Assembly: GCA_026647365.1 (NCBI GenBank)
Contig: JAPKGW010000003.1
Coordinates: 23,220 to 87,219 of the forward strand
Direction: 5' to 3'
DNA from: Phycisphaerales bacterium
GTDB taxonomy: Bacteria > Planctomycetota > Phycisphaerae > Phycisphaerales > UBA5793
DNA: 64,000 nucleotides
Position 1 is the stretch's first letter. Each line of letters begins with the position of its first letter. Positions 12,519 through 62,361 of the stretch are shown here, piece by piece. The notes beneath the pieces were generated by a model. It saw only the letters and a list, made by a program, of their open reading frames with translations, made no database searches and had not been told where the DNA came from. The translations under genes and the position numbers were made by a program.

Positions 12519-13433
12519 TCAGGAAGTGGTCAAGGCGAACCGGCGATGAAGCAGGACGCAGCCGCCGAGCCAGAGAAGGATCCAGAACGCTGTGAAGCAC
12601 AGCAGAGCGACCGGCATCGGACCGCTGACGGAGGACATCCGGTTCTGTGTGACCGAGAAGTGATCCGCGACCGGGGCTCGACTGAGCAGGGAATGAAGAG
12701 CCGGCCCCGATCGCTGGCCGTCCGTTGCGGTGTGAATGAAGCCGCACAGTGCGCCGGCCGCCTTGCTGCGCACGGGTGACTCTTCGCGCGGCGCCGCGCT
12801 GTTCTCCTCGAGGAACTTGAGCATCGCCGCCTCATCGAGTTCAGTGAGCGGCCGTCGCTTCGGCTGCCTTTCCGTCCACCACTGTTCCGCATCAAAGTCA
12901 ACGCGAAGGACCGCTCCCGGCGGCGCGAGGAAGCGGCCTGTATGGAGGATCCGAAAGGCCAGGCGGTCGGCACGGTCTGCCGCCAGCGCTGCATCCGGCC
13001 CGCTGCCTTCGCCCAGGGGCCAGACGAGCCGGTCTGAGTTCGCGACCATCTCGATCACCTGCGCCGGAGGCGTCAGCAGGCCGAGGTTCCACACGTGCTC
13101 GCGCTGAGTGCGAGCGGGCACCACGGTTGACGTGAGCACTCTCGTGATCACCAGCGACGGGATCGGCAGCAGGAGCGACCAGAGGATGATCGCCAGCCAC
13201 GGTCCGAGCGGGCGGCGAATCGCGGGCGTGAGGATGCCCACGGCTCGCAGATCGGAGCCGCATTCGGGGCAATGGAGCGAGGTCAGACCTTCGACCGGAT
13301 AGCGGCAGGCGGCGCAGCAGGGGCGTGCGACATCCGGCATCTTGAGGGTCCGTCCTGTCAAGTAGGCCATGTAGACAAACGCGCTGATGACCAGCGCGGC
13401 GCCGAGGAGGACCAGGGGAATGGCAAGGCTCAT
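12519..13433 (-). CDS. Membrane protein with cytoplasmic zinc-ribbon motif (unknown function)
   Basis: Start set to ATG 13433 (MSLAIPLVLLGAALVISAFVY), which forms an ATGA overlap with the upstream stop. The order is TM helix, CCAACRYPVEGLTSLHCPECGSDL, a second TM helix, a ~170-aa soluble region, then a C-terminal TM helix. Confidence 0.6.
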   Translation of the reverse strand: MSLAIPLVLLGAALVISAFVYMAYLTGRTLKMPDVARPCCAACRYPVEGLTSLHCPECGSDLRAVGILTPAIRRPLGPWLAIILWSLLLPIPSLVITRVLTSTVVPARTQREHVWNLGLLTPPAQVIEMVANSDRLVWPLGEGSGPDAALAADRADRLAFRILHTGRFLAPPGAVLRVDFDAEQWWTERQPKRRPLTELDEAAMLKFLEENSAAPREESPVRSKAAGALCGFIHTATDGQRSGPALHSLLSRAPVADHFSVTQNRMSSVSGPMPVALLCFTAFWILLWLGGCVLLHRRFALTTS

Positions 13434-13963
13434 GGATCGCCTGGACTTTCGGATCGGGGCCTGGGAAAGTGTAGAAGAGTTGGCGCCCCGCATTCCGGGC
13501 ACACATCCGGAGAGTGGCCGCTGAGGGTGTAGCCGCAGTGACTGCACACATCAGGTCGCATCAGGAGGTCACTCGGCAGGAGGGCGGTGAGCAGCAGCGC
13601 CAGAATCGGGACAAGCAGGCCGAGCGTGACGACCGACCAGATCAGCGCGCCGGAAGAAGCGACGGCCGCGGCTGCGGCGAGGGCTGCGACGTAGATGATG
13701 GGAAGCGCCAGGACCTGCTTCTTCCGCGCGATCGTCATGCACAGGACCGGCGCGTGTGCGAGTCCGAGGATCGCTCCGACCGGGACGGCGAGGAGGGAGG
13801 CGACCCACAGGTCGGTCGGACCGCCGCGAAGCACGATCGCCGCCGCGAGCGACAATGCCAGGCACGCGATCGCGCCGCACGGCGCGATGATCACCAGCCG
13901 CCGGCGCCGGCGATCCAGTTCGTGTTGAGCCGACACATCGTCGATTGTTTCGATCTGGTTCAC
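13430..13963 (-). CDS. Polytopic membrane protein with C-terminal zinc-ribbon motif (unknown function)
   Basis: Start set to GTG 13963, 1 nt after the NDH-2 stop. The track start 14101 would overlap NDH-2 by 137 nt. Four hydrophobic helices are followed by CSHCGYTLSGHSPDVCPECGAP. Confidence 0.6.
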   Translation of the reverse strand: MNQIETIDDVSAQHELDRRRRRLVIIAPCGAIACLALSLAAAIVLRGGPTDLWVASLLAVPVGAILGLAHAPVLCMTIARKKQVLALPIIYVAALAAAAAVASSGALIWSVVTLGLLVPILALLLTALLPSDLLMRPDVCSHCGYTLSGHSPDVCPECGAPTLLHFPRPRSESPGDP

Positions 13964-13964
13964 G

Positions 13965-15629
13965 TCAGTCTCCCGCGCGACCGGTGGCGGGCGGGGATGG
14001 AGTGTCGCGTTCCGGCGCCGGGCGGTCGCCGCGTTGACGCGCGGTCTGCTCGAACTGCGTTCGCAGGACATCGAGATTGGCGATGAGGGAGGTGAATTCA
14101 CCCTTCTGGATGCTCAGCACGTCCATCGCCTCGATGCAGCGGACGGTGGCGTTGCGCGGCGCACGGTTGAGCAGGGCCATCTCGCCGAAGTACTGTCCCG
14201 CGCCCAGATGCGCCACGGTCTGCGCCTCGGCGGAGCCGTCGATGAGCCGCTCTACGGCGGCCCGTCCTCGAATGACGATGTACACGCGGTCGCCGAGATC
14301 GCCCTGCTCGAAGACGGGCTGGCCCGGCTCGAAGTGCTCATGGTTGATCCCGCTGCTGCGCCCGAGGCGCAGCTGCACGATGTCGGGGGGCAGGACGAGA
14401 TCGACGATCCACGAGAGGCCGACGCGCAACTTCGCCGCCGCACCTGGAAGTTTGCTCCAGTAGACTGTGCGCCAGAGGAACCAGGCGGGCAGACCGGCCA
14501 GTTTCAGCCCCATCACCTGCGCCACGCCCTTGCGATGGCCCAGGGCGCAGAGCGAGCCGAGGCCCCTGAACGTGAAGGGCGTCAGCGGTCTTCCCTCATC
14601 GGAGGCGAGGATGTTGGAAGCGGCAACGCGCGCCTCGCGTATGGCATGCTGGGCCGTCGGCGGAGCGAACGCCGATTCATCAGGGCACTTGGCGTGCGGA
14701 AGCGGAACGAGGGCGCAATCGCCCAGCGCCCACACGTTCGTCGAGCCCTGGGCGCGCAGAAATGCGTCCACGACAATGCGCCCGCGGATCCTGGAAAGTG
14801 CCAGCGACTCGCAGACCGGGTTCGGATGGCTGGGGACGGTGGCCACGAGCGTGGCGGTGGGCAGGCGCGTGCCGTCCGAGAGCAAGGCATGATTGGCCGT
14901 GGCCGCCTGAAGCCGCGCATTGAGCATGATCTCGATCCCGCGCCGCCTGAGCAGGCGCTGCGCGTAGAGCGCGAGCGACTCATCGACCTCGGGCAGGATG
15001 CGCTCGCGCGAATGCAGAAGGATGAAGCGGCGCTTCTCGCGGCGGAGGCGCGGGTAACTCCGCGCCGCGCGCCGGACGAAGTCGTGCAGTTCGGCGATCA
15101 CCTCGACGCCGGAGAACCCGCCGCCGGCCACGACAAACGTGAGCAGGCGGGCGCGCAGGCCGATGTCGCGCTCGGATTCCGCCTCCTCGAGCACGTGGAT
15201 GACATGGTTGCGCAGTACGAGGGCGTCGCCGTGCGTCTTGAGGGGCATGGCGTGCTCAGCCAGCCCGGTCATGCCGCGGAAGTCCGTCACGTTGCCCAGC
15301 GCCACGACGAGGTGGTCGAAGGGCAGGACGAGGTGGCGCGGCTGAAAGCCCGGCGAGCAGATCACCTCCCGCCGCTCAAGGTCCACACTCTCCACGTCGC
15401 GCATGTGCAGTTGGGCGCCGGGGACGAAGCGGCGAATGGGAATCGTCGTGTCGGCGATTCCGATGCTCCCGCTGATGACTTCGGGCAGCATCGGCTGGAA
15501 GACGAGGTAGTTCTCACGGTTGACAAGGTGGACGTCGATGCGATCGCGGCCGCGACGGAGCAGTTCGCGCGCGGTGTAGACGCCCGCGAATCCGCCGCCG
15601 AGGATGACAATGCGCCTGCGATCACTCAT
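13965..15629 (-). CDS. Type II NADH dehydrogenase-like flavoprotein fused to a C-terminal cyclic-nucleotide-binding domain
   Basis: Two Rossmann motifs (IVILGGGFAGVYTAREL and FVVAGGGFSGVEV) and ALGDCA. The C-terminal ~130 aa form a CNB domain with phosphate-binding cassette GQYFGEMALLNRAPRNATV. Confidence 0.9.
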   Translation of the reverse strand: MSDRRRIVILGGGFAGVYTARELLRRGRDRIDVHLVNRENYLVFQPMLPEVISGSIGIADTTIPIRRFVPGAQLHMRDVESVDLERREVICSPGFQPRHLVLPFDHLVVALGNVTDFRGMTGLAEHAMPLKTHGDALVLRNHVIHVLEEAESERDIGLRARLLTFVVAGGGFSGVEVIAELHDFVRRAARSYPRLRREKRRFILLHSRERILPEVDESLALYAQRLLRRRGIEIMLNARLQAATANHALLSDGTRLPTATLVATVPSHPNPVCESLALSRIRGRIVVDAFLRAQGSTNVWALGDCALVPLPHAKCPDESAFAPPTAQHAIREARVAASNILASDEGRPLTPFTFRGLGSLCALGHRKGVAQVMGLKLAGLPAWFLWRTVYWSKLPGAAAKLRVGLSWIVDLVLPPDIVQLRLGRSSGINHEHFEPGQPVFEQGDLGDRVYIVIRGRAAVERLIDGSAEAQTVAHLGAGQYFGEMALLNRAPRNATVRCIEAMDVLSIQKGEFTSLIANLDVLRTQFEQTARQRGDRPAPERDTPSPPATGRAGD

Positions 15630-16883: not shown

Positions 16884-17086
16884 TGGTGTGGGCCTCCATC
16901 CGGAGGGGTGTGAGTCTCTGTGCCAGTCCGGGCCGGCCACAACAGGATACGGCCCCAACGCGGGTCAAGCCTGTTCAACGCGCCAGCCGATTAGACTTAC
17001 CAGTCCCCGGCGCGGTCTTCTCCCGAACCCCGCCCCTTGTCCCCCGCCCGTCGCAACGGCGCCGCCTCACACAGGAGCATGTCGGC

Positions 17087-18691
17087 ATGGCCAGGCGGAT
17101 GCCCACCGTGAGACTCACCGGCGCAAGCGCCGCGGCGATGACTGCGGCCGACCTGGCACACATCGACATCTTCCGCGATCTCGACCGCAAAGTGATCGAG
17201 AGGTTTCCGGGCGCTGTGGTGCGGCGCGAGTTTGAGGCGGGTGAGGTCATCTGCCGCGAGGGTGAAGGCGGCACGACGGCGTTTTACATCGTCGAAGGCT
17301 CGGTGCAGGTCTTCATTGCGCGCCCGTGCGGTTCGAGCGCAGCCCGGCCCCACGGCTCGTGGCGCGCGATGATCGGGCGCCTGCTGGGACAGAAGTCCGT
17401 ATCGCCTCCCGTGCACGCGCACGACGATCTCATCCCCATCGACGCCAACGTGGACCTGACCTGGGGCCAGCCGCGCGCCGCGCTCGGCGCCGGCGAAGTT
17501 TTCGGCGAGATGAGTTGCCTCAATCTCGCGCCCCGGTCCGCGACGGTCGTCGCCGAGTCCGACTGCACGATGCTGGAAATCCTGCGCAACGTGTACGAGC
17601 ATCTCCAGAAGGCCCCGACCTTCCGCGAGCGGATGGACGCCAACTACCGCGCTCGCGCCCTTCAGGGCCATCTTCGCAATGTGCCGGTTTTTCGCGACCT
17701 GCCCGATCACGTGCTCAAGGGGCTCGACGAGCGCGCCCAACTGCTGGCCCTGGACGCGGGAACGACCATCTTCAGCCAGGGTGATGAAGCGGACGGCCTG
17801 TACATCATCCGCCTCGGACAGGTGCGCGTGAGCCAGGCGTTCGCGGGCGGCGAGAGAACACTGGCGTACCTGACTCGCGGCGACTTCTTCGGCGAGACGG
17901 GGCTGCTGCGCCACACGAAGCGCAATGCGACCTGCCGGGCCGTCGATCATCCGATCGTCGAAGGAGGCCGCCGGCGCCGGCCCGGTCGCGTCGAACTTGT
18001 GAAAATCCTCGCGGAAGACTTCGAGCCGGTGATGAAGGAGTTCCCGCGCATCAGGGGCCGCCTCGAAGCCATCGTCGGCGCGCGCAACCGCCAGGCCAGC
18101 GAGGCGAGAACCTCGATCACCGTTTCAGCGCCGAGCCGGCGCGTCGAGGACCTCGGCCTGCTCCAGGGTCAGAACCTCATGCTCATCGATCTCGAGCGCT
18201 GCACGCGCTGCGATCAGTGCGTGGACGCGTGCGTGTCGGCGCACGAGGATGGCATCAGCCGCCTCTTCCGCACCGGGCCTCGCTACGACAAGTACCTCGT
18301 GCCGTCGAGTTGCCGCATGTGCCTCGACCCCGTGTGCATGATCGGCTGCCCGGTCGGTTCGATCCGGCGGAGCGAAGACCTGAGCATCATCATCGAGGAC
18401 TGGTGCGTGGGATGCGGCATCTGCGCCAAGCAGTGCCCGTACGAGTCGATCGTCATGCACGAACTCGAGGAGTTCGGCCAGGAAGTGAGCGAGAGGCTGC
18501 GCCGCGTGGCGGAGAGCGGCGAGGTCGTGGCCGTCACCCAGCGCGCCGCCGTGTGCGATCAGTGCGAGAGCCTGCCGACGGGCCCGGCGTGCGTCTACGC
18601 CTGTCCGCATGACGCGGCTGCGCGCGTCAATGCCGCGGAGTTCCTCAGTGCCGGCGGGCTGTTTCAGACGGCGGCACGGGAAGGGGGGTAG
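17087..18691 (+). CDS. Two cyclic-nucleotide-binding domains fused to a four-cluster [4Fe-4S] ferredoxin (DmsB/NrfC-like)
   Basis: The real start is ATG 17087, 10 nt after AGGAG. The 375 codons upstream in the track ORF are antisense to the cytochrome gene. CNB cassettes are FGEMSCLNLAPRSATV and FGETGLLRHTKRNATC. Cys motifs are CTRCDQCVDAC, CRMCLDPVCMIGCP, CVGCGICAKQCP and CDQCESLPTGPACVYACP. Confidence 0.9.
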   Translation: MARRMPTVRLTGASAAAMTAADLAHIDIFRDLDRKVIERFPGAVVRREFEAGEVICREGEGGTTAFYIVEGSVQVFIARPCGSSAARPHGSWRAMIGRLLGQKSVSPPVHAHDDLIPIDANVDLTWGQPRAALGAGEVFGEMSCLNLAPRSATVVAESDCTMLEILRNVYEHLQKAPTFRERMDANYRARALQGHLRNVPVFRDLPDHVLKGLDERAQLLALDAGTTIFSQGDEADGLYIIRLGQVRVSQAFAGGERTLAYLTRGDFFGETGLLRHTKRNATCRAVDHPIVEGGRRRRPGRVELVKILAEDFEPVMKEFPRIRGRLEAIVGARNRQASEARTSITVSAPSRRVEDLGLLQGQNLMLIDLERCTRCDQCVDACVSAHEDGISRLFRTGPRYDKYLVPSSCRMCLDPVCMIGCPVGSIRRSEDLSIIIEDWCVGCGICAKQCPYESIVMHELEEFGQEVSERLRRVAESGEVVAVTQRAAVCDQCESLPTGPACVYACPHDAAARVNAAEFLSAGGLFQTAAREGG

Positions 18692-18815: not shown

Positions 18816-19688
18816 ATGATCATCGATCGATCGCACATCTCGTGGGGGGTCGGGACGACGATGGCGGCGGCTGGAGCCATCTGGTGGTACCTCGCCGATG
18901 CGCCGCGGCACCTCAACGGGCCTTCAGGCTCGACGGTCGTCGGCCTCACGCTCGGGTCCATCGCCTTCGGGATCATGCTCTTCTGCGCCGCCCTTTCGGT
19001 CAAGCGCAAAGCGCCGCACTGGCGCGTGGGGCGCGCCTCGACGTGGCTTCGCGGCCACATCTGGCTCGGTCTTCTCACCTGCGTGCTTGTGGGGCTGCAC
19101 GCGGCCTTTCGACTCGGCGGACCGGCCGCCATTTTGCTGTGGACGCTCCTCGGCCTCGTGACCATCAGCGGATTGCTCGGGCTGCTTCTCCAGCAGTTCG
19201 TCCCGCGCCTGCTTCTGCACAGTGTGCCCGGCGAGACCATTGCCGCGCAGGTGAATCGGCGCCTGAGCGACCTGGGCGCTCTCGCCGAGAAGATTGTCAT
19301 CCAGTATGCGGGGGCGCTCGATGCGGCCGCTCCGCCGTGGGAAGGCGCGGCCGTCGCGGGGGGTCGTCCTCCGGCGGGAGGCGAGCCGATCCGCAGGTTC
19401 TTTCTGGACCACCTGCGCGGCTATCTGGCCGGTGCGGCCTCGCCGGACCTGGCCGATCCCCATAGAGCGGAGAACCTCTTCAGCGCCCTGCGCACCATGA
19501 CCCCGCCGCATGCCCATGCCGCCATTGACGAGTTGACCGGCCTGTACCACCTGCGGCGCGACCTTCTGCGGCAGAGGCGCCTGATGCGCGTGCTCTTCCT
19601 CTGGCTCATCATTCACGTGCCCCTGAGTTGGGGCCTGCTCATTCTGGTCATCGCACATGCGGTTGCGGCCCTGCGCTTCTGGACGTGA
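18816..19688 (+). CDS. Five-TM membrane protein, candidate di-heme cytochrome b
   Basis: Hydrophobic helices lie at about residues 12-27, 41-62, 81-98, 103-127 and 258-286. His81/His95 (GHIWLGLLTCVLVGLH) and His267/His281 (IIHVPLSWGLLILVIAH) each have 13 intervening residues. ATG follows directly after an in-frame TGA. Confidence 0.7.
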   Translation: MIIDRSHISWGVGTTMAAAGAIWWYLADAPRHLNGPSGSTVVGLTLGSIAFGIMLFCAALSVKRKAPHWRVGRASTWLRGHIWLGLLTCVLVGLHAAFRLGGPAAILLWTLLGLVTISGLLGLLLQQFVPRLLLHSVPGETIAAQVNRRLSDLGALAEKIVIQYAGALDAAAPPWEGAAVAGGRPPAGGEPIRRFFLDHLRGYLAGAASPDLADPHRAENLFSALRTMTPPHAHAAIDELTGLYHLRRDLLRQRRLMRVLFLWLIIHVPLSWGLLILVIAHAVAALRFWT

Positions 19689-19716: not shown

Positions 19717-20259
19717 ATGCCAGATACCCGACCTCTCGAAGAACGATTCGACATCACGTACGTGCGGGCCGTGCGCTGGCCCGAACTCGTGAATCGCTGC
19801 CTGATGTGGGTGGTGGTGCTCGCGGGCGGCGGAGCCCTGGCCCTACTCTCCGTGCGCGGGGACCATCGCCTCTACTCCTCGGGCGAACTGAATGTCGTTC
19901 ACGCGAGTTTCGGGAGCGACTGCGCGCAGTGTCATCAGCCGGCGCCCGGCGCGGGGACCAACTACTTCATGCCGGTGTCGGACCAGGCGTGTCTGCGCTG
20001 CCATGCCGCGGCTGAACACGCAGCGGGACAGTCCGCGTTCAGCGCCGACCTCGATGTTCTGATCCCCGGCCACGCCGGGCCGGTGCGGATGGCGGCCCGG
20101 TGCGCCCAGTGCCACGTCGAGCATCGTGGCCCGCAATCCAATCTCAATCTCGTCTCCGACCGCGTGTGCCTCCAGTGCCACTCTGACCTTGGCCTCCGAG
20201 GCTATTCCCGGGGAGATGATCGCGCCGGGGCGGCGTCGAACGGGGAGGGGGCGCCATGA
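19717..20259 (+). CDS. Membrane-anchored tetraheme cytochrome c
   Basis: N-terminal TM helix (CLMWVVVLAGGGALALLSV) and four CxxCH motifs: CAQCH, CLRCH, CAQCH and CLQCH. Confidence 0.85.
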   Translation: MPDTRPLEERFDITYVRAVRWPELVNRCLMWVVVLAGGGALALLSVRGDHRLYSSGELNVVHASFGSDCAQCHQPAPGAGTNYFMPVSDQACLRCHAAAEHAAGQSAFSADLDVLIPGHAGPVRMAARCAQCHVEHRGPQSNLNLVSDRVCLQCHSDLGLRGYSRGDDRAGAASNGEGAP

Positions 20260-21578
20260 CTCGCCTGGTCCTGCGCATCGCGGCCATCCTGTGTCTCGCC
20301 GCGGCCGCCGCTTCGCTCCTTCCGGCGCAGCCGCGCACGGACCCGTCCCTTGAGGCGGGCGTGGTGAACCGGGTGACAAATTTCATCACCGATCATCCCG
20401 AGTGGGCTGTCTTGCGCGACGGGCGAGACGACCTGGCGACCATCAACCTGACGCACCGCACGCACATGAACCCCGCAGCGCACCGGATGCAGCAACTCAT
20501 CACGAAAGCGGGCGAGGCCATTCCCGCGGTGGCGACGGGGCCCGACGGAGTTCGCACGCTCACCTGCGCCTCATGCCACGAAGCCGACGACGCCGGACGG
20601 TACATGAAGCCGATCCGCTTCGAGCGTCACTGCGCCTCGTGCCACGTTCCTGACTTTCCGGTGATCGAGGGCCGCCCCGTGCCGCACGGCGACGTGCCGG
20701 CGCTCGTGGACCGTGTTCAGCGGGCGGCAGGGTCCGACTACGCGGCGATGTCGGCGGCGCATGCGCTGCATCTCAACCCGGATGTATCTCGCATGCAGGA
20801 CCTGCTTGCGGCGGACCAGGGCGCGGGTCGCATCCCCGGCGTTGCCACCGACGCCGCAGGGAAGCGCACGCTGACGTGCTCCTCCTGTCACACGGCGAAG
20901 GACGATCAGGGCGCAATGAAGTCAGTTTCGTACAAGGCGCACTGCGCCTCGTGTCATGTACAGGAGCCGGCTTCGTTCCGCATCTCCGCGACGGCAACCG
21001 AGAACGCGGCGGCGTGGTTCGCGTCCGCTTCAATCGAGTCCTGGCCCGGCGCCGATGTCTGGCAACCCGGCGCGGGGCTGCTGGCTTCTGCTTCGTTCGC
21101 CGTGCGCACGGTGCAGCCCCGGCGCGACAAGGTTTACGCCCCCGAGGGGCACAAGACATTCGTCGGCGCCAACGACTGGATCAACCGCCGGCAAGTCACG
21201 GACTTCGCGCGGATCCGCGGGACGTGCGTTCGGTGCCACGCGAAGGAGTCGATTACCGCGCCGTCGCCGGACCGGCCGGGAGAGCCGTTTGACGTGGCGC
21301 CGCCGATGATCCCCGACCGATGGCTGGAGCGGTCGATCTTCTCTCACCGCGCGCACCGTGCCCTGACGTGCCTCGAGTGCCACGAGGGGGCGCAAGGGGG
21401 CACTCGGGCGGCCGACATCATGCTGCCGTCGATCGAGTCCTGCCGCAAGTGCCACACTCCGGCCGTGGGCGTTCGCTCGGACTGCGTTCTGTGCCACGTG
21501 TATCACCGGCCGATCAAGCCTGGGCCGCCGGGCACGATCACGATCGAGCAGTATTCAGGCGCGTCGGCTGAGCCGTGA
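20256..21578 (+). CDS. Secreted octaheme cytochrome c
   Basis: Signal-like MTRLVLRIAAILCLAAAAASLLPAQP and eight CxxCH motifs: CASCH, CASCH, CSSCH, CASCH, CVRCH, CLECH, CRKCH and CVLCH. The start overlaps the upstream stop (ATGA). Confidence 0.9.
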   Translation: MTRLVLRIAAILCLAAAAASLLPAQPRTDPSLEAGVVNRVTNFITDHPEWAVLRDGRDDLATINLTHRTHMNPAAHRMQQLITKAGEAIPAVATGPDGVRTLTCASCHEADDAGRYMKPIRFERHCASCHVPDFPVIEGRPVPHGDVPALVDRVQRAAGSDYAAMSAAHALHLNPDVSRMQDLLAADQGAGRIPGVATDAAGKRTLTCSSCHTAKDDQGAMKSVSYKAHCASCHVQEPASFRISATATENAAAWFASASIESWPGADVWQPGAGLLASASFAVRTVQPRRDKVYAPEGHKTFVGANDWINRRQVTDFARIRGTCVRCHAKESITAPSPDRPGEPFDVAPPMIPDRWLERSIFSHRAHRALTCLECHEGAQGGTRAADIMLPSIESCRKCHTPAVGVRSDCVLCHVYHRPIKPGPPGTITIEQYSGASAEP

Positions 21579-21594: not shown

Positions 21595-22746
21595 TCAGCG
21601 CCGCAGTCCGCGCAGCCGCTCAATCGCCGCGTGGAGGGTTTCGAGGCGCTTGCAGAAGGCGAAGCGGACGAGGCGCCGGCCGTGCTCCACGTTGTCATAG
21701 AAGGGAGTCGGCGGGATCGCCGCCACGCCGATTCTGTCCACGAGGTGCATGCAGAACGCACGGTCGTCCGGGAAGCCGAAGGGCGTGTGGTCGGCCAGAA
21801 CGAAGTACGTTCCTGCCGGTCGATACACGACGAATCCGATTTCTTCGAGAGCGTCGCAGAGCAGATCGCGCCTCCTGCGGTAGTCGCGGAGAAACCCGTC
21901 GAGGTATTCCTGACCGGCGCTCACGGCCTCGGCCGCACCGTGCTGGAGCGGCGTCGCCACCGAGTAACTCAGGAACTGCCGACCCGAGCGCACGCAGCGG
22001 CTCAGGTCCGGCGAGGCGATGGCCCAGCCGATCTTCCAGCCGGTCAGCGAGAATGTCTTGCCGACGGAGGAGAGCGTGATCGTGCGGTCCTTCATGCCCG
22101 GCAGCGTCGCCAGGCGCACGTGCTCGCCCTCGAAGACGAGGTGCTCGTAGACTTCATCGGTGATCGCAACGAGATCATTCCTGTTGCACAGTTCAGCGAT
22201 GAACGTGAGTTCGTCGCGGCTGAACACCTTGCCGGTCGGGTTGTGGGGCGTGTTGACGAGGATCGCGCGGGTGCGCGAGGTGACGGCCCGCTGCAGCGCC
22301 GCATGGTCGAGGGCGAACTCCGGTGCGGCGAGCGTGAGAACGATCGCCTTGGCGCCGCACATCTCGATGCAGGGCTTGTAGGAGTCGTAGTACGGCTCAA
22401 AGATGATGACCTCGTCTCCCTCATTGAGCAGGCCCAGGCATGTCGCCGCAATTCCCTCGGTGCATCCGTTGGTCACGCTCACCTGCGTATCCGGATCGAT
22501 GATCTGCCCCGTGAGGCGCCGCCACCGCTGCGCGAGGGCCTGGTTGAGCGGGGGCACGCCCGACATCCGCGCGTACTGGTTGTGGCCCGCGTTGATCGCT
22601 TCGATGGCGGCGCTGCGCACGAACGCCGGACCGTTGAAGTCGGGGAAGCCCTGCGAGAGGTTGATCGCGCCCTTCTCGTTGGCCAGGCGGGTCATCTCCG
22701 TGAAGATCGACGTGCCGTAGGACGCGAGACGGTGGGAGACGGTCAT
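21595..22746 (-). CDS. Class I/II pyridoxal-phosphate aminotransferase (methionine/kynurenine aminotransferase-like)
   Basis: INLSQGFPDF, NQYARMSGVPPL, NTPHNPTGKVF and the PLP-lysine region SSVGKTFSLTGWKIGW. Confidence 0.9.
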   Translation of the reverse strand: MTVSHRLASYGTSIFTEMTRLANEKGAINLSQGFPDFNGPAFVRSAAIEAINAGHNQYARMSGVPPLNQALAQRWRRLTGQIIDPDTQVSVTNGCTEGIAATCLGLLNEGDEVIIFEPYYDSYKPCIEMCGAKAIVLTLAAPEFALDHAALQRAVTSRTRAILVNTPHNPTGKVFSRDELTFIAELCNRNDLVAITDEVYEHLVFEGEHVRLATLPGMKDRTITLSSVGKTFSLTGWKIGWAIASPDLSRCVRSGRQFLSYSVATPLQHGAAEAVSAGQEYLDGFLRDYRRRRDLLCDALEEIGFVVYRPAGTYFVLADHTPFGFPDDRAFCMHLVDRIGVAAIPPTPFYDNVEHGRRLVRFAFCKRLETLHAAIERLRGLRR

Positions 22747-22799: not shown

Positions 22800-24515
22800 A
22801 TGATGATAGCGAAGAGGAGTCGCCGTCGAAGACTGGGCATCTACTACACGCCGCCCGCTCTGATCGGCCCGATTCTCGATGCGGCGCTCGATCCGATCCT
22901 GGCGGAAATGGGCGACGAGGCGTCGTGCGCGGCGCGCCTGGCGACGCTGCGCATCATTGATCCTGCGTGCGGCAGCGGTCGTTTTCTCATCGCGGCATGG
23001 AGGCGACTGGCGCGAAGGATTGAGGGCGCGGCGCGCCCTGCGAACCGGGTCGACCTGCTCCGAGCGGCCGCCGCGTCGCTGCACGGCATCGACATCGACC
23101 CGCAGGCGGGTCTTCGCGGAGCGCGCCTGCTGCGCGCCGAGTGCGGTCGCGGCCCGCTGGCGCCGCGCGACTTTTCCAACTGGTTCGTGCTCGGCGACGC
23201 GCTGCTCGACGAGTGTGCGGGCGAGGCTTGTTTCGACCTCGTGCTCGGCAATCCTCCTTTCGTTGACTCCGAATCAATGTGCGAGGCGGATCGCGGCCGC
23301 CGCCCTCGACTCGCCGCGCGCTACGAGACCGCTCGGGGCAACTGGGACCTCGCCGCCCTTTTCGTCGAGCGCGCCGTACAACTGGTGCAGCCCGGCGGAC
23401 GCATCGGCCTTGTGCTGCCCCGCCGCCTGTTCGCATCCGATCATGCGCGGCGCGTGCATCGGCTCATGGAGAGGCAGACGATCGAGTCGATCCGGCTCAA
23501 TGCTCCCGACGCGTTCGAGGATGCGGCCGTCAAGACCGTCAGCGTCGTCATGCGGCGCGCTGTGCCATGCGCCGATCATGCAATCTGCATCATGGATGCA
23601 GGTGCCTGCTCGTGGAGCGCACTGCAGCGGGGTCTGCGACTGCTCCCGCCGGGCCACTGGTCGGCGATCCTGTCTCGCCCGCCCGTGCGTGATCGACGCC
23701 GTTGGGCAGAGCGAGAGTCCATGCCGGTGCTCTTCGCCTCCGATGTGACGGCGGCGCTTCGCGGCCGCCCGCGCCTGCGCGACATGGCCTTCGTCGGCGA
23801 CGGCGCGACGACGGCCGAAGCCTACGTCATCCGCGACGCGATCATCGAGGCGGGCGAGTGCGGCGCACCCGCGGCGCCTCTGATCAACACGGGGACAATC
23901 GATCCGTTCGTGAAGCGGTGGGGGAGCCGGCCGACGCGCTACCTGCGGCGAGCCTGGATTCGGCCCGTGGTTCCGCTCGAATGGCTGGATGAACATCTGC
24001 CCCGGCGTGCGGCACAGTCGCGGTCGCCGAAGGTGCTCGTCGCAGGTCTCGCGGGGCGCATCGAAGCGGTCGTCGATGAAGTCGGCGCCCTGTGCGGCAA
24101 GTCGGCGGTGCAGATCATCCCGCGCGACCCCGCCGTGACCCACGCCCTGTGCGCGTGGCTGAACTCGACGCCGGTCAACGCGCTCTATCGATTGCTCTTC
24201 GAATCGCGAGGTTTCGGGGCGAGGTCGATGCACCTGGGTCCGCGACAGATCGAGCAACTTCCCCTCTGGCCTCCCTTCGAACCGAACGGCGCCGAAGCGA
24301 TCGAGGAACTGGCCGCACTCAGCCGGCGCATGCACAGTCTTGCAGCCGGCGATGCGCCGCAGTCCGGCGCGAACCTTCAACCCGAGGCGATGCGCGCGGC
24401 CCTCGACCGCATCGACGAGATTGCCGCGGCGCTGCTGCGTGCCGGGAGCGAACTGCCGCCTGCGCTCAGCGCGACGGATCGACGGGAATCGCGGGCGCGG
24501 GATCGAGTTCCATGA
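22800..24515 (+). CDS. N6-adenine DNA methyltransferase, Eco57I/TaqI (gamma) type with TaqI-like C-terminal target-recognition domain
   Basis: LGIYYTPPALI (motif X), IIDPACGSGRFLIAA (AdoMet motif I), VLGNPPFV (motif IV, NPPF). The C-terminal half resembles the TaqI specificity domain (INTGTIDPF...PKVLVAG...CAWLNSTPVNALY). Confidence 0.85.
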   Translation: MMIAKRSRRRRLGIYYTPPALIGPILDAALDPILAEMGDEASCAARLATLRIIDPACGSGRFLIAAWRRLARRIEGAARPANRVDLLRAAAASLHGIDIDPQAGLRGARLLRAECGRGPLAPRDFSNWFVLGDALLDECAGEACFDLVLGNPPFVDSESMCEADRGRRPRLAARYETARGNWDLAALFVERAVQLVQPGGRIGLVLPRRLFASDHARRVHRLMERQTIESIRLNAPDAFEDAAVKTVSVVMRRAVPCADHAICIMDAGACSWSALQRGLRLLPPGHWSAILSRPPVRDRRRWAERESMPVLFASDVTAALRGRPRLRDMAFVGDGATTAEAYVIRDAIIEAGECGAPAAPLINTGTIDPFVKRWGSRPTRYLRRAWIRPVVPLEWLDEHLPRRAAQSRSPKVLVAGLAGRIEAVVDEVGALCGKSAVQIIPRDPAVTHALCAWLNSTPVNALYRLLFESRGFGARSMHLGPRQIEQLPLWPPFEPNGAEAIEELAALSRRMHSLAAGDAPQSGANLQPEAMRAALDRIDEIAAALLRAGSELPPALSATDRRESRARDRVP

Positions 24516-29611: not shown

Positions 29612-32600
29612 CTACCGCTTGAAGGTCGCGTCGGCGCGGACGGCCTTGCCGGCCTCGACGGTGACATTCTGCGTGCTCTCGCCGAGTATCGGATGGTGGA
29701 AGACGACCTCGTACTGCCCCGGCGGCAGGCCGGCGATGCGGTACACGCCGCGACCGTCCGACACGGCGTGATACGAATGGTCGAAGACGTAGATGAGTGC
29801 GTTCATCCAGGCGTGAACTTCGCACTTGAGGCGCATTCCCATTTCCGGCGCATTGAACACCTGCCGATGGACCATGCCCATGACCGGCTGGGCGACGTTG
29901 AAGCCCGCATTCTTCTCGGCGGTGAGTTTGAGGTTGTGGTTCAGCGGATCACTGTTGCGCATCTCGAGCGGCTGGCCCGTGGTGATGGTGCTGACATGAG
30001 GCTCGTAGATGCAGCCGTTCTGGTTGATCACCTTGCCGCCGTCAAGCGGGTTTCTGCCGGCAGGCGCGCTGCGGATGAACACCACAACGTCGGCGAGCGA
30101 GCCGTTGTCGTTGATGACGACATCGGCGGTCAGCGGGGTCGGCAGGCCACGCTCGCGCGAGACCGCCTGGCAGGCCGCATCGAGGCGGACCCGCGTCCGG
30201 CGAGGCGCCGGCCCCTCGAAGGCGATCAGGCCGGCGATCGAGCCCGTCGCGGGGTCGGCGTTGTTCAGCACCGAGGCGACGGCGGCTTCGCGGTCTTCCG
30301 CTTTCTGCTCGGGAGTGAGTTCCGGCCGTTGCGCCGGTGTCGGAGTCGGCGCCGGTTCGGCGCCGCCGTTCTTCTCGCCCGGGTCGGCTTCGGCCTGGGC
30401 GGGCGCCTGGGCCGGCGGAGCCTCGCCGCGCGCCTCAGCCTCGCGACGCCGCTGCTCGGCGAACGCCTCGAGGTCGATGGCGGCGGTCGGCGACTTCTCG
30501 TCCCTGAGCAGGTGCTCACCCACGGTGTATCGCCGCTTGCCCGCGGCATAGAGCCAGCGCACGATCAGGTCAATCTGTCCCTCGGGATCGGAGCCATAAA
30601 GCGCCTCGAACTTCCGTCGAGTCTCCTCGGGATAGCCTGCGGCAGCGCTGACGGCGCCCGTGTCGCCGAAGAGCGACGGCATTTTGGTGCCCGGCATGAT
30701 CGAGTTCGGCTGGCGGAGCCAGTTCCTGACGTAGTCCTCCTGGAGGCGGACGTAGGTCAGCGCAAGGTTGGGCGCGCTGATCTTGTCATAGAGCGACGGC
30801 GCCTGCTCCTGCGCGGGCTCGTCAGAGCCGTAGGGATCCTGTTCGTCTTCCCCGTAGCCGCCGCCTTCTTCCTCTTCTCCTTCGCCGCTGCCGTACGGAT
30901 CAGGCTCCTCGTCCGCAGCGGGGAGCGGCTCGTTCTGCATCTCAAAGATGCGTTCGAGTTTGTCCCATTGGCCCAGCGCGTGGCAGGCGAAGCAGCCCAG
31001 GTCGGTGACGATTTTCTCGCCAAGGGCGAACTCCTCGGGAGTCATGTTGTCAATGGGCGGCGCCTGGAAGGGGAAGTCGACGCCCTCGTAGACGCCGCGC
31101 AGGAACCGCAGGTCATGCCAGATCTGGCCGTGCTTGCGTGCGAACTCTTCGGGCGAGTCGGAACGCGAAGGGAAGAGATTGGGGGCATAAAGCCCATGCG
31201 CCCGCGCGGTCTGCACGATCGCGTCGCGCGTTCTCTCGAACGGTTCGGGCAGGAGCATTCGGCCGACGGCTTCCTGGGCGGCGGCGCGTGCAAGTTCATC
31301 AGCGGTCTTGGCCGTGCTGCCCGAGGCGACGACCTCCTTGAACCGGTCTCGATACGCCCGGTCATACTCGCTGGTGAGGGCGGCGTCCACCGGCTGCAGG
31401 TGTTTCGCGATCAGCCGCGCATCCATCGTCGTCTGTCCGGCGACGTACTCGACGAGCCACTGCGTCTCCTGCGGCGTGAGGTTGAAACTCGGCATGCGGA
31501 TTTCGAGCCACGGCCGGAGCATCTCGACGTTGTTGAGGAATGAATAGAACCAGGCATGCTGGGTCTTGGCGCCGTTGCCGACGATGCGCGGCGGGGCGTT
31601 GGGCAGATTCTCCTGCGTCTGGGCGTAGTTGACGCTCCCGTCACGGCCGCGGATTTCGAAGTACTGCCTGACGTTGGGGACGTTGTTCTCAATGTCGTGG
31701 CATCCGAAGCAGTTGAGCGCCTCGGCCATGAGGCGGCCGCGGGCGCGCATCGTGGCGGGATCGTCGGCCGCGTTGCGCAGCGAGCCGCGCACCAGCGGCG
31801 GCTTGAGGCTCGTCACGTACGCCACCAGCGCCCGCGCCTCCGAATCGCGCATGAAGAAGCGCGGCATGCGCAACTTGAGGTAGGGCTCGCCCACCGAGCG
31901 GATCTCGACGTCGGCGTCGCCCAGGCCCGAGTCCTTCCCTGTCGCCAGGTCGACGTAGCGACCCTCCCGTCTGACCAGCCGGCGAGTTCCGTCGCGCCGG
32001 GCGGCGTAGATGATCTCGCCCTCGGGCGTCATCTCGCCCTCGACGTTGAGTTTGCTGCGATCGAAGATGCGGCTGTTGTGCAGTTTCGCGTGGAGATAGC
32101 CGCGGCGGTCGTTGGGCACGTGCTCCCACGCCAGCGTGCGCTTCGACACCAGCGGGTCATGCGCGTCGCCGCTGATCTTCACCGCGTCCTCGGTCAACCC
32201 TTCGCGCTGCACGAACCAGACGTCGGTCTGTGGCGGCCTCTGGTGATCGAAGATGTGTTCGAAGAAGCCGAAGTCGAGTTTGTGCGGGTCCTTGCGCCCG
32301 TAGGTGCTGAGGTTGGCGGACACGGCGAGTGCGGAGTCAAAGCCGCTGATCTGGTGGCAGCCGAAGCAGCCGTAATGCTGGATCATGCGGGAGCCGAGGT
32401 CGAACTGCTTTTCTTCGAGCGACATGGAGGCAAGCCGGTCACGTGCCGCCCGGTCGGAGATCGCGTTGCGCTGGAGGTTGATGAGCAGGGCGTCGATCAT
32501 CTGCTCGTCGGCCTCGAAGTGCTGAGGTTCATAGGCCGGGTGCTTCTGCTCGAGCAGGTACGCCGCCAGGTCGAGCGCTTCCTGCTCGGAAAGGCGGAAC

Positions 32601-59801: not shown

Positions 59802-60527
59802 TCAATCCCCCCCGAGAGGCTCAAGCAAGGCCCGCAGGTCAGAGATGAGGTGTACGCCCACGTCGTCAGCCTGCGGGCGTCGGACGATGACGGGCCGCGG
59901 CACGGCTTCGTGCTTCGCGCGGGCAGGTCGGGCGTGATCGAGCAGGACCTGCAGCGTGAAACGCGGATCGAAAGCGCCGCAGCCGAGATCGGCTGGATCG
60001 AGGTTCTCGCCTGCGGGATCGGGCGCGGCGTCGGCGAGGATGAAGGCGGCACCGGCCGCCGCGAGCGCTTCCGCGATCCTCAGGAGATGATCTTCGCGAT
60101 GGGGGATCATGCTCGGCTCGAAGAGCGCGACGGGATTGAGCGCCAGGCCGATGTGCGCGTCTCCATGCTCGCGCAGAAAGACGGCGGCGGTGAGCGCATC
60201 GTGCAGGATGTGGCGGCAGTGCGGCTCGATGAGCAGGCGGATCCGAAGACGAACCAGGTCGGGCCGCAGGGAGAAGAGGTGATCGGCGAGCCGGGCCGCA
60301 GCGCCCGCCATCCAGTTGCGCGGCACGGGCGCGCCGAGGTCGTCGCCAAGCGAACCGGAGTTGATCAGCAGGGTCGTGCCGGCGAATCGTTCCAGCGCCC
60401 TCCGATCGAGTTGCAGCGCGTTGCCGCGCCATACACGGGCGAGCGGGGCGGCGCCGCCGGCGCGCGGACCGAGGGGGATGATGAGAGCCTCGTCGTCCGC
60501 CGCGCCCGCCTGTTCAACGTAGAGCAT
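59802..60527 (-). CDS. Hypothetical protein (possibly xylose-isomerase-like TIM-barrel fold)
   Basis: Start tentatively ATG 60527 (MLYVEQAG...); the track start is 60650. There is only weak resemblance to sugar-phosphate isomerase/epimerase barrels (LLIEPH...IGLALNP). Function is not supported beyond that. Confidence 0.45.
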   Translation of the reverse strand: MLYVEQAGAADDEALIIPLGPRAGGAAPLARVWRGNALQLDRRALERFAGTTLLINSGSLGDDLGAPVPRNWMAGAAARLADHLFSLRPDLVRLRIRLLIEPHCRHILHDALTAAVFLREHGDAHIGLALNPVALFEPSMIPHREDHLLRIAEALAAAGAAFILADAAPDPAGENLDPADLGCGAFDPRFTLQVLLDHARPARAKHEAVPRPVIVRRPQADDVGVHLISDLRALLEPLGGD

Positions 60528-60648
60528 GAAGGCAAAGAGTAGGGGAGGTCTCGCCCTTCGACCGCCGCTGCGACAACGCACGAATTCCACTCGGCGGCAG
60601 ATCGGGGGCGGCCTCGATCCAACCGATAGAATCGGGCAGAACCCCGTC

Positions 60649-62361
60649 ATGCGCCCGTCCCCCGTGAATCCCAGCAGCGAAGACAGGTCGAAGTCGCAGA
60701 CGCCTCACTGCGGCGGCGGCCGGGTCGTTCACCTGCCCGTGGCGAGGGCGGACGCGGCGCCCGCGCCGACGATCCGCCCCTCGCGGATGGGACGCCGCCG
60801 CGCCATTGTGCTCGGCCTCGTGCAACTGGCGATGATCGCGCACGTCGTGCAGTGGATGATCACCGGAACGACGACGACGCCCATCGAGCCGTCCGAGTCG
60901 ATGGAGTTCGCCCGGCGCGGCGTGATCAACGCGGGGCTGATCTTCTTCGTGCTCGCGCTGCTCTCGACGCTGGCGCTCGGGCGGTGGTTCTGCGGCTGGG
61001 GCTGCCACCTCGTCATGCTCCAGGACCTCTGCGGGTGGATGATGAAGAAGATCGGCGTGCGGCCCAAGCCCTTTCGCTCGCGCCTGCTGCTCTTCGTGCC
61101 GCTGATTCTGGCGTTGTACATGTTCATCTGGCCGGCGGCGCACCGGCTTGCCGTCGCGCCGCTGACGGGCGCCAGCGGAGACCTGCCCGAGTGGCGCGTG
61201 CAGGCGCACCTGACGACGAGCGACTTCTGGCAGACCTTCGCCGGCGTCGCCGTCGCGGTTCCTTTCCTGCTCGTGTGCGGCTTCGCGACCGTCTACTTCC
61301 TCGGCGCCAAGGGGTTCTGCACTTACGGCTGCCCCTACGGCGGGTTCTTCGCCCCGCTCGACCGCCTCGCGCCCGGGCGCATCCGCGTCACCGACGCCTG
61401 CGAACACTGCGGGCACTGTACGGCCGTGTGCTCGAGCAACGTCCGCGTCCACGAAGAAGTGCGCGACTACGGCATGGTCGTCGATCCGGGGTGCATGAAG
61501 TGCCTGGACTGCGTAAGCGTGTGCCCGAATGACGCGCTGTATTTCGGCCTGGGTCCGAAGGCGATGGGGGCGAAGCCGCGCGTTGAGAAGCCGGCGCAGC
61601 GCCGGTTCGATCTCACCTGGGGCGAGGAAATCGGTTGTGCGCTGGTTTTCGCCGGGGCGTTCTTCGCCTTCCGCGGCCTGTATGGGCAGATTCCCATGCT
61701 TTTTGCCGTGGGCATCGCAGGATGCCTCACGTTCATCGGGTGGAAATCGTGGCAGGCGCTGGGCGACCGAAACTGCCGCTTTCATCGATTCCAGTTGCGC
61801 CGCTCAGGGCGGTTGACGGCCGCCGGCGGGGCCTGGCTCGCTCTGGCGGCGATTCTCGTCGCGCTCACGCTCCACGGCGGCGTCGTGCAGTACCACACCT
61901 GGCGCGGCATCAACGGCGCGGCGCTCGTTGCCGTCTCCATCGACGAGGCCCTGCGCGGCGACGTGGTGATGAGCGAGGCCGACGCCCGGACGCTCGATCG
62001 CGCCGAGGCACACCTGCGCAAGGCTGACTCGATTGCCGCAGGGGGGATCGGGATGCTCGGTCAGGCTGACGTTGCCGTCGCACTCGCGCGGATTCACCTG
62101 CTTCGAGCGAGGTGGGAGGAGTGCGAGGCGCAGCTGCGCCGCGGCCTCGCCCTCGGCGGCGCGACGGATGTCCTGTCGCGCGACCTCGGCCGCGTGATGC
62201 TCCGCCACCGTCGCGCGGACGAGGTGATCGCCTGGTACGAGCAGACGCTGCGGTCGCACCCGGACTTTGCCGGCACGCGTGCCGCATGTGCATCGCTGCT
62301 TGACGCGCTGGGCCGAGCAGACGAGGCGCAGCGGATACGTGCTGAGCAGCCCGCGCAGTAG
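60649..62361 (+). CDS. Membrane polyferredoxin (NapH/CcoG-like 4Fe-4S protein) fused to a C-terminal TPR-like domain
   Basis: GRWFCGWGCH and GAKGFCTYGCPYGGFF membrane-proximal Cys motifs. Ferredoxin motifs are CEHCGHCTAVCSSN and CMKCLDCVSVCPNDAL. Additional TM helices are followed by ~170 aa of helical repeats. The start is uncertain: ATG 60649 or ATG 60787. Confidence 0.8.
   Translation: MRPSPVNPSSEDRSKSQTPHCGGGRVVHLPVARADAAPAPTIRPSRMGRRRAIVLGLVQLAMIAHVVQWMITGTTTTPIEPSESMEFARRGVINAGLIFFVLALLSTLALGRWFCGWGCHLVMLQDLCGWMMKKIGVRPKPFRSRLLLFVPLILALYMFIWPAAHRLAVAPLTGASGDLPEWRVQAHLTTSDFWQTFAGVAVAVPFLLVCGFATVYFLGAKGFCTYGCPYGGFFAPLDRLAPGRIRVTDACEHCGHCTAVCSSNVRVHEEVRDYGMVVDPGCMKCLDCVSVCPNDALYFGLGPKAMGAKPRVEKPAQRRFDLTWGEEIGCALVFAGAFFAFRGLYGQIPMLFAVGIAGCLTFIGWKSWQALGDRNCRFHRFQLRRSGRLTAAGGAWLALAAILVALTLHGGVVQYHTWRGINGAALVAVSIDEALRGDVVMSEADARTLDRAEAHLRKADSIAAGGIGMLGQADVAVALARIHLLRARWEECEAQLRRGLALGGATDVLSRDLGRVMLRHRRADEVIAWYEQTLRSHPDFAGTRAACASLLDALGRADEAQRIRAEQPAQ

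Follow-up and report, generated by a model that had tools for sequence, protein, structure and literature searches.

Here we describe NDH2-CNB, a gene for a flavoprotein with a predicted second-messenger sensor at its C-terminus, located in a 64,000-nucleotide stretch of a Phycisphaerales genome (GenBank assembly GCA_026647365.1, contig JAPKGW010000003.1, positions 23,220 to 87,219) that we refer to, in its full length, as the window. The gene is an unbroken open reading frame (ORF) of 554 codons that runs on the minus strand from an ATG at 15629 to 13965, and its GC contents at the three codon positions (0.72/0.47/0.85) are in line with those of the other genes of this ~67% GC window. Its product combines a core of the NDH-2 (type II NADH dehydrogenase) type (aa 1-418) with one complete cyclic-nucleotide-binding (CNB) domain (aa 429-534). 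In Pfam searches Pyr_redox_2 matched aa 6-333 (E 1.9e-37) and cNMP_binding (PF00027) matched aa 431-517 (E 1.4e-21, profile positions 2-87 of 89). The motifs GGGFAG (aa 11-16), GGGFSGVE (aa 169-176) and ALGDCA (aa 301-306) lie in the core, followed by LPAWFLWRTVYWSKLPG at aa 380-396, and the CNB domain contains VFEQGDLGDRVYIVIRGRAAV (aa 439-459) and GQYFGEMALLNRAPRNATVRCIEAMDVLSI (aa 478-507). An AlphaFold2 (AF2) model built on 32 family members had a mean predicted local distance difference test (pLDDT) score of 84.6. Coordinates of the gene, of its parts and of the surrounding genes are collected in Table 1.

Table 1. Features of NDH2-CNB and its surroundings, in positions of the window
Feature	Position	Strand	Description
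NDH-2-type flavoprotein with C-terminal CNB domain, complete gene	13965..15629	-	554 aa plus stop; ORF, Pfam domains, identical protein in public assemblies
Two-dinucleotide-binding flavoprotein core	14631..15614	-	aa 6-333; FAD GxGxxG aa 11-16, NAD(P)H GxGxxGxE aa 169-176, GD aa 303-304, AQHAIR aa 326-331
Second beta-strand of NAD(P)H Rossmann fold, RFILLHSRERILPE	14988..15029	-	aa 201-214; contains His206 and Arg210
NDH-2 C-terminal membrane-interaction/quinone-site domain	14376..14561	-	aa 357-418; helices aa 380-393 and 397-412 (AF2)
Linker from membrane helices to CNB barrel	14346..14375	-	aa 419-428; pLDDT < 50 at aa 420-426
CNB domain, beta-barrel plus two C-terminal helices (aa 509-517, 519-534)	14028..14345	-	aa 429-534; Pfam, PDB sequence matches, AF2 secondary structure
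Phosphate-binding cassette, FGEMALLNRAPRNATV	14142..14189	-	aa 481-496; conservation in 120 relatives, ungapped alignment to the cassette of the PKA regulatory subunit
Secreted multihaem cytochrome with Cytochrome_C554-type segment	15672..16883	-	3 CxxCH + 1 CxxxxCH (CSGGGCH, CX4CH); Pfam E 1.7e-7
CNB-CNB-4x[4Fe-4S] protein, cytoplasmic, HydN/NrfC-like	17087..18691	+	534 aa; Pfam cNMP_binding and Fer4 families, NCBIfam HydN-like match
Four-histidine membrane protein	18816..19688	+	290 aa; H81/H95 and H267/H281
Membrane-anchored tetrahaem cytochrome c	19717..20259	+	4 CxxCH, one N-terminal transmembrane helix
Secreted octahaem cytochrome c	20256..21578	+	8 CxxCH
Membrane protein with paired CxxC (zinc-ribbon-like) motifs	13430-13963	-	directly downstream of NDH2-CNB
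Membrane protein with paired CxxC (zinc-ribbon-like) motifs	12519-13433	-	directly downstream of NDH2-CNB
Aminotransferase	21595-22746		between the cytochrome cluster and the methyltransferase gene
Eco57I/MmeI-type N6 DNA methyltransferase	22800-24515	+	two genes past the cytochrome cluster
Giant 1945-aa ORF	29612-35449	-	cytochrome c domains (several), CarboxypepD_reg-like domain at the C-terminus
611-aa protein	60526-62361	+	TPR repeats combined with Fer4_5 and dicluster [4Fe-4S] motifs

The assignment of the core to NDH-2 draws on both sequence and predicted structure. Among solved structures, those most closely related to aa 2-411 belong to NDH-2 enzymes, headed by the mycobacterial Ndh 9mqy (E 3.5e-42), with Caldalkalibacillus thermarum 4nwz, B. 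subtilis YjlD, S. aureus NDH-2 and yeast Ndi1 among the other sequence relatives, and the best matches of the AF2 model in a Foldseek search of the PDB were all NDH-2 structures (template modelling scores of 0.83-0.90 normalised to the target, 25-31% identity). Among 120 listed homologues (55-100% identity), all glycines of both GxGxxG motifs were kept without exception, as were G303 and D304, and E176, which follows the second GxGxxG, was present in 119. In S. aureus NDH-2 the residue after the second GxGxxG is the catalytic glutamate E172, and the GD motif is found at the FAD (PMC5299459); E176 is the predicted equivalent of this glutamate. Every motif from which an initial annotation of this DNA had deduced an NDH-2 core (two GxGxxG motifs and ALGDCA) is present, and Pfam, PDB and Foldseek agree with that deduction.

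The resemblance continues into the region that gives NDH-2 enzymes their attachment to the membrane, with the phmmer alignment to the mycobacterial enzyme extending to aa 411 and including the C-terminal helices, which in NDH-2 serve both for docking at the membrane and as the quinone site (PMC5299459). Residues W383, W386, R387, Y390, K393, P395 and G396 are invariant or nearly so among relatives. The initial annotation had described this region as amphipathic; the segment at aa 380-396 is indeed there and is tryptophan-rich, but its computed hydrophobic moment is only 0.13, and that of the next helix (aa 397-412) is a modest 0.35, so that the assignment as a membrane anchor rests on homology to the NDH-2 C-terminal domain.

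The tail of the protein is a complete CNB domain by the same kinds of evidence, as had been claimed from its sequence at the outset. PDB sequence matches of the tail comprise protein kinase A (PKA) regulatory subunits, PKG, Epac and the SthK channel, and the AF2 model predicts strands at aa 429-508 with a helix at aa 483-489, backed behind the barrel by hinge or lid helices (aa 509-517 and 519-534) in which R523, F526, E527 and R533 are conserved. The phosphate-binding cassette, of the form FGEMALL...R-x-A-T, aligns without gaps to the PKA regulatory subunit FGELALLYNAPRAATV (FGELALL..PRAATV), and likewise to PKG cassettes, and has the length of the PKA cassette. In CNB domains of the PKA-R/CAP/Epac type the cassette lies between beta-6 and beta-7 of an eight-stranded barrel, its Gly-Glu pair contacting the ribose 2'-OH and its Arg-x-Ala-Thr/Ser segment the cyclic phosphate. 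F481, G482, E483 and R492 occur in 120/120 relatives, A494 in 119 and T495 in 113; in a wider sample, consisting of the query and 31 diverse representatives (34-55% identity), the glycine is found in 32/32, the glutamate in 31, the arginine in 28 and threonine or serine in 31. The CNB region is conserved to much the same degree as the catalytic core (mean identity to the query 0.60 vs 0.63), and only the last 20 residues of the protein are not conserved. These patterns show an intact cassette under purifying selection, and the domain looks functional, as a predicted binder of cyclic nucleotide monophosphates (cNMPs). Loss of the ligand contacts, which the initial annotation had named as a possible weakness of its proposal, is not seen, G482, E483 and R492 being invariant in the 120 relatives and near-invariant down to 34% identity; a degenerate CNB domain was ruled out by the invariant cassette together with conservation equal to that of the core. 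No separate N-terminal helical (N3A) motif is found between the last NDH-2 helix (aa 397-418) and the first strand of the barrel (aa 429), which are separated by just ~10 residues, and in the model the NDH-2 helix at aa 397-418 may substitute for it.

The fusion of these two parts was found to be a recurrent architecture. The identical 554-aa protein occurs on ~21 contigs, and the four shown come from four different Sequence Read Archive (SRA) runs, with neighbours that are always the same. Both PF07992 and PF00027 are present in all 120 listed homologues, and those of them that bear a name go only by 'FAD-dependent oxidoreductase' or 'NADH dehydrogenase'. When a single genome of each species was scanned, at least 546 genomes turned out to contain a relative; architecture was read in the best 80, whose matches all span ~aa 1-533, and therefore both parts, and among which at least eight phyla are represented. 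These matches include Planctomycetota (with the complete genome of Kolteria novifilia Pan216), Acidobacteriota, Myxococcota (with the complete genome of Labilithrix luteola DSM 27648), Bacteroidota, Ignavibacteria, Methylomirabilota, Lindowbacteria, Binatia and Zetaproteobacteria (Mariprofundus sp. EBB-1). Searching with aa 340-554 against representatives of clusters at 50% identity retrieved 128 clusters at E <= 1e-30, and about half of the 150 clusters listed match as a single stretch over the junction between NDH2_C and CNB. The combination of Pyr_redox_2 with cNMP_binding that had been proposed from one gene, and for which a phylogenetic distribution had been called for, therefore holds in every listed homologue and in all of the best 80 genome matches, and its suspected origin in a sequencing or assembly fault is refuted by the identical protein in four runs and the same architecture across many species.

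The nearest relatives are encoded by metagenome-assembled genomes (MAGs) of Phycisphaerae and other Planctomycetota, together with one contig labelled Vicinamibacteraceae; the window itself bears N-methyl/DUF1559 proteins typical of Planctomycetota, and both observations point to Phycisphaerae as the most likely source of the DNA. The exceptional contig (locus L009, WYBR01000109.1, isolate 'PLA1') carries a gene module of the Phycisphaerae type and a protein 80% identical to that of the window, and may be a mis-binned or mislabelled MAG. Longer variants of the protein were also encountered, namely putative DoxX-NDH2-CNB and putative MIP(aquaporin)-NDH2-CNB fusions, NDH2-CNB-CBS, NDH2-CNB-FHA (with two or three copies) and NDH2-CNB-TPR (entries P0133, P0138, P0152, P0153, P0160, P0192 and P0204). 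The CBS, FHA and TPR modules appended after the CNB domain in some members would fit the character of a regulated enzyme.

Further insight into the signal that the CNB domain may receive was obtained from gene context, by clustering the flanking ORFs of 83 non-redundant NDH2-CNB loci. Class III nucleotide cyclases were the most recurrent neighbours, at ~20 loci, and in ~10 of these, mainly on the same strand, the cyclase is directly adjacent. Guanylate_cyc was confirmed in five loci, by Pfam scan in L020, L027, L046 and L049 and from precomputed matches in L005; cyclases confirmed by Pfam adjoin the gene in several loci of Acidobacteriota, Methylomirabilota and Myxococcota, the last including the cultured Labilithrix luteola. 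The cyclase of L046 is a response-regulator-cyclase fusion encoded directly upstream of NDH2-CNB. Nine cyclase-like regions lie in the 158 kb within 1 kb of the gene and 13 in the 970 kb at 1-10 kb, densities of 5.7 vs 1.3 per 100 kb that correspond to a ~4-fold enrichment (Poisson P = 3.6e-4). The adjacent cyclase of L005 has a Lys...Asp pair, two others have the lysine alone and five have only a threonine, at the second position. We take the Lys...Asp pair to be of the adenylate type, and because of these residues cyclic AMP (cAMP) is favoured as the predicted ligand of NDH2-CNB.

Signalling proteins and periplasmic electron carriers also occur at these loci. Crp-type regulators or other CNB proteins were found in 16/83. 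In three loci from Methylomirabilota and Binatia MAGs (L046, L055 and L057), NDH2-CNB is followed by a NapC/NirT tetrahaem cytochrome and then by a CNB-only protein, to which L055 and L057 add a monohaem cytochrome c. In L086, from the same group of MAGs, the order differs: CNB-only proteins flank NDH2-CNB, and cyclase genes lie downstream. The NapC/NirT family is the classical quinol dehydrogenase family, and its cluster with NDH2-CNB is a second, independent pairing of the flavoprotein family with periplasmic cytochromes. Along with the putative DoxX-NDH2-CNB fusions, these neighbours speak for a link to quinone, and gene context outside Phycisphaerae supports, for the family as predicted from sequence, a cyclic-nucleotide input and a quinone output.

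We therefore propose, with a probability of roughly 0.7, that NDH2-CNB is a monotopic, cytoplasm-facing flavoenzyme of the NDH-2 type that would pass electrons from NAD(P)H through FAD to membrane quinone, with its activity set post-translationally by the binding of a cyclic nucleotide, most likely cAMP, to the C-terminal CNB domain. In the proposed mechanism NAD(P)H would be oxidised at the FAD and electrons handed to a membrane quinone, while binding of the cyclic nucleotide would move the cassette and hinge helices of the CNB domain. Because the CNB barrel begins ~10 residues after the membrane and quinone-site helix, with no separate N3A motif in between, this movement is proposed to act on the helix at aa 397-412/418 and could thereby alter membrane docking or quinone access. 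Activation by cAMP through relief of autoinhibition is favoured by analogy with other CNB-enzyme fusions, the sign of the response being the least certain step. In the Phycisphaerales source organism the reduced quinone would feed the periplasmic multihaem cytochromes encoded alongside, and the neighbouring CNB-CNB-iron-sulphur (FeS) protein would answer to the same messenger. In this widespread family, entry of electrons into the respiratory chain is probably under the direct control of a second messenger. Of the allosteric cNMP control of a respiratory NADH:quinone reductase suggested in the initial annotation, the cyclic-nucleotide input is thus backed, at the level of sequence, by gene context in other phyla; the substrate may be NADPH, or both nucleotides, rather than NADH.

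A number of observations weigh against this interpretation. NDH2_C matches aa 357-408 with 25.9 bits, slightly under its cut-off of 27.7 bits, a threshold that homologues of NDH2-CNB pass (29-46 bits). The WxxG motif near the adenine of NAD(P)H, which occurs in 99% and 100% of 1762 NDH-2s (PMC5299459), aligns to A263-T-V-P266 and reads [SA]TVP in the 120 relatives; at this position tryptophan is never present in the wider family, and the glycine is found in 21/32. The quinone-site motif AQxAxQ reads AQHAIR, with A326, Q327 and A329 conserved and arginine at the last position in 119/120 relatives and 29/32 of the wider family; the last glutamine occurs in only 78% of NDH-2s (PMC5299459). The residue following the cassette arginine is Asn, Ser or Thr, vs Ala in PKA. 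By comparison with PKG and cyclic-nucleotide-gated channels, cyclic GMP (cGMP) may for this reason be a ligand as well. The window holds no cyclase or phosphodiesterase gene among ~35 of ~40 likely coding ORFs scanned with Pfam, and a tblastn search of it gave just one marginal match of 43 residues. Finally, no domain interface can be read from the AF2 model because confidence in the linker is low (pLDDT < 50).

To these points is added the choice of electron donor, since a prediction of NADH vs NADPH from a single residue is unreliable (PMC11670749). An acidic residue that ends the second beta-strand of the NAD(P)H fold, E272 in Ndi1, is tied to NADH preference, as a marker of specificity and not a criterion of NDH-2 membership, and an uncharged residue in its place goes with the use of NADPH in plant and fungal NDH-2s, by a rule that is imperfect (PMC11670749). 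In NDH2-CNB this position is held by His206, which aligns with the D or E of the solved mycobacterial and C. thermarum enzymes; the histidine is found in 119/120 relatives and R210 in 114/120; in the wider family, 30/32 members have either H or Q. Because the acidic NADH-specificity residue is replaced by the nearly invariant His206/Arg210, it is plausible that NDH2-CNB accepts NADPH, alone or besides NADH. By alignment, then, we read the core as an NDH-2 fold with its catalytic motifs in place that is nevertheless not fully canonical at three points.

In the window NDH2-CNB forms part of a divergent gene module rich in electron carriers. The gene for the c554-like cytochrome lies 42 bp upstream on the same strand and is probably co-transcribed with it, and such a cytochrome is immediately upstream of NDH2-CNB in L001, L006-L010, L073 and L087. 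Four genes are transcribed divergently (Table 1), the first of which encodes the CNB-CNB-FeS protein, in which both cassettes are intact and 16 cysteines are arranged as four [4Fe-4S] motifs, and which in the close clade always adjoins the gene for the four-histidine membrane protein. The core of the module (c554-like cytochrome, NDH2-CNB, CNB-FeS protein and membrane protein) recurs in L006-L010, whose relatives are 64-81% identical, together with the downstream cytochromes where the flank is long enough, and was found again in L087, which was reached independently through a 34%-identical homologue of the membrane protein. Because the module is kept in the close clade and missing from ~75 more distant loci of the family, we consider it, on synteny, a clade-specific elaboration in Phycisphaerae. 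The second-messenger input that the initial annotation had suggested NDH2-CNB shares with the neighbouring CNB-ferredoxin gains weight from this synteny, which is conserved in seven independent loci.

The four-histidine membrane protein belongs to a family of which 91 sequences were detected, mostly unnamed or 'hypothetical' and, where the source is named, from Phycisphaerae. No substitution of H81, H95, H267 or H281 was seen down to 26% identity, and the members of each pair are 14 residues apart within one predicted transmembrane helix. Searches found no Pfam family for this protein, but 27/37 members match Ferric_reduct weakly and 11/37 match prokaryotic cytochrome b561. The family may represent a new dihaem-b transmembrane electron carrier; a Foldseek search of its model against the PDB gave no match with E below 0.7, and we infer the haem-b assignment from the four invariant histidines and the weak profile matches.

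No regulatory signal stood out around the cluster. Crp-type operators of the form TGTGA-N6-TCACA (<=2 mismatches) gave 14 matches vs 13.2 expected, with none in the divergent intergenic region 16884-17086, and sigma-70-like promoters and terminators around the cluster were not found above shuffled expectation. The two CxxC membrane proteins downstream of NDH2-CNB have no Pfam family and are kept solely in the closest relatives, L007-L009, at 35-40% identity. On the other side of the module, past the aminotransferase gene, the methyltransferase gene occupies the same place in all four identical contigs. The remaining genes with electron-carrier motifs noted in the window, the giant ORF and the 611-aa protein, are listed in Table 1.

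Other explanations of the NDH2-CNB architecture deserve consideration. That assembly or gene calling has joined an NDH-2 gene to a separate CNB gene has a negligible chance of being correct: the reading frame is continuous, the identical protein comes from separate runs, and the architecture occurs in hundreds of species, the complete genomes of K. novifilia Pan216 and L. luteola DSM 27648 included. We rejected this explanation, as the ~21 contigs, the 120 listed homologues and the best 80 genome matches are all fused. A more substantive concern is what the CNB-like domain senses. FNR, CooA, PrfA and many bacterial CNB folds bind other ligands or none, and the domain might sense neither cAMP nor cGMP, binding instead some other small molecule or serving only to dimerise or dock, as in those Crp/Fnr members whose nucleotide binding has been lost; the window without a cyclase gene, and a linker and domain interface left undefined by AF2, would be compatible with such a role. 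We nevertheless regard it as quite improbable, given that the cNMP-specific contacts, Gly-Glu and Arg-x-Ala-Thr/Ser, vary little or not at all within the family, in a cassette of PKA length, and that cyclases are enriched beside the gene in other lineages.

A different alternative concerns the output of the enzyme. In the Phycisphaerae clade the flavoprotein might act not mainly as a quinone reductase but as the point at which NAD(P)H enters a split transmembrane electron-export chain resembling NADPH oxidase (NOX). From its FAD, electrons would move to the CNB-CNB-4x[4Fe-4S] protein, on to the putative dihaem b membrane protein and then to the tetra- and octahaem and c554-like cytochromes of the periplasm, with cNMP gating both cytoplasmic parts. 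The module, of five or six genes, is kept wherever flanks exist in the close clade (L001, L006-L010) and was recovered from the divergent membrane-protein homologue of L087; the four invariant histidines in two transmembrane helices and the weak Ferric_reduct and cytochrome b561 matches also speak for such a chain, as do the deviations of the core from canonical NDH-2 at WxxG and AQxAxQ. We consider this role of the flavoprotein unlikely all the same, for ~75 of the 83 loci lack the three partners of NDH2-CNB in the core of the module and yet conserve the C-terminal membrane and quinone-site helices, the adjoining partner elsewhere is a NapC/NirT quinol dehydrogenase that points to the quinone pool as intermediary, and the haem-b assignment has no structural match in the PDB. 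A little less doubtful, if still a tentative idea, is that the six-part module as a whole constitutes a second-messenger-gated electron-export chain of a new kind ('split NOX'), in which the flavoprotein would oxidise cytoplasmic NAD(P)H, an FeS wire and a putative, previously undescribed dihaem-b family would carry the electrons over the membrane to periplasmic multihaem cytochromes, and post-translational gating of the path would fall to three CNB domains, binding cAMP or cGMP, on the two entry proteins of the cytoplasm. Our preferred reading for the family remains a cyclic-nucleotide-controlled NAD(P)H:quinone reductase.

Comparison with known systems presents NDH2-CNB as a combination of two well-understood modules. 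With canonical NDH-2 (C. thermarum 4NWZ, mycobacterial Ndh 9MQY, S. aureus 5NA1 and B. subtilis YjlD) it has in common the fold, both GxGxxG motifs, the catalytic glutamate, GD, AQxA and the C-terminal helices; it differs in the addition of a 135-aa C-terminal CNB domain, in lacking the Trp of WxxG, in having His or Gln for the acidic residue and in the Arg that replaces the last Gln of AQxAxQ. From a large survey of NDH-2, proteins to which further domains are fused were explicitly left out (PMC5299459). In function, the nearest precedent comes from plants and fungi, where NDB1 and Neurospora NDE1 are NDH-2s with an EF-hand insertion and Ca2+ has been proposed to regulate activity (PMC5299459), and where several EF-hand NDH-2s lack the acidic residue and use NADPH (PMC11670749). 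These enzymes resemble NDH2-CNB in having a second-messenger sensor built into an NDH-2, but their messenger is Ca2+, the sensor is inserted between the GD motif and helix alpha-7, and they are eukaryotic and external-facing.

On the side of the sensor, the M. tuberculosis cAMP-regulated acetyltransferase Pat (Rv0998) and Bdellovibrio Bd1971 (CNB-EAL) likewise have a single CNB domain fused to an enzyme as an allosteric switch, and the CNB region of our protein matches both the NCBIfam Pat model (E 2.7e-9) and the CNB domain of Bd1971 (6hq2, E 1.7e-9); in contrast to these, the enzyme part of NDH2-CNB is a predicted membrane redox enzyme and its CNB domain is C-terminal, directly after the membrane helix. 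The Listeria locus for flavin-based extracellular electron transfer, described by Light et al. in 2018, is said to encode a specialised NDH-2, which would likewise be a dedicated NDH-2 within an electron-export gene cluster; it reportedly differs in having no CNB domain and in its partners, EetA/B and PplA, with no multihaem cytochromes. Previously, the census of Kannan et al. 2007 delineated a 'Bact_Pyrredox' subfamily with tandem CNB domains on a pyridine nucleotide-disulphide oxidoreductase and the cassette consensus GEMGLISGRRRGATVRA, and suggested that redox and NADH metabolism may be under CNB control (PMC2246266); fusions of CNB with thioredoxin reductase are mentioned elsewhere (PMC6544261). 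By its published description that subfamily would differ from NDH2-CNB, whose one CNB domain contains GEMALLNRAPRNATVRC and is attached to an NDH-2 core that includes a membrane domain. Full-text literature searches found no description of an NDH-2 with a CNB domain, although a brief mention in Marreiros et al. 2016 is possible, and a 2025 preprint on NDH-2 evolution does not mention one. The NDH2-CNB family is real, widespread and uncharacterised, and yet assembled from familiar parts.

The control of respiratory dehydrogenases in bacteria is generally attributed to transcription and to the supply of substrate. If our interpretation is correct, NDH2-CNB would provide a direct post-translational link from second-messenger signalling to the entry of electrons into the quinone pool, in environmental bacteria, mostly uncultured, from at least eight phyla, and would give the Ca2+/EF-hand NDH-2s of plants and fungi a counterpart in bacteria. 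The idea is easy to test, as the predicted enzyme has a single subunit and cultured hosts exist in K. novifilia Pan216, L. luteola DSM 27648 and Mariprofundus sp. EBB-1. For Phycisphaerae, the analysis flags an uncharacterised multihaem and FeS electron-transfer module with three CNB domains, which would bear on redox balance or extracytoplasmic electron transfer in these bacteria of sediments and the water column.

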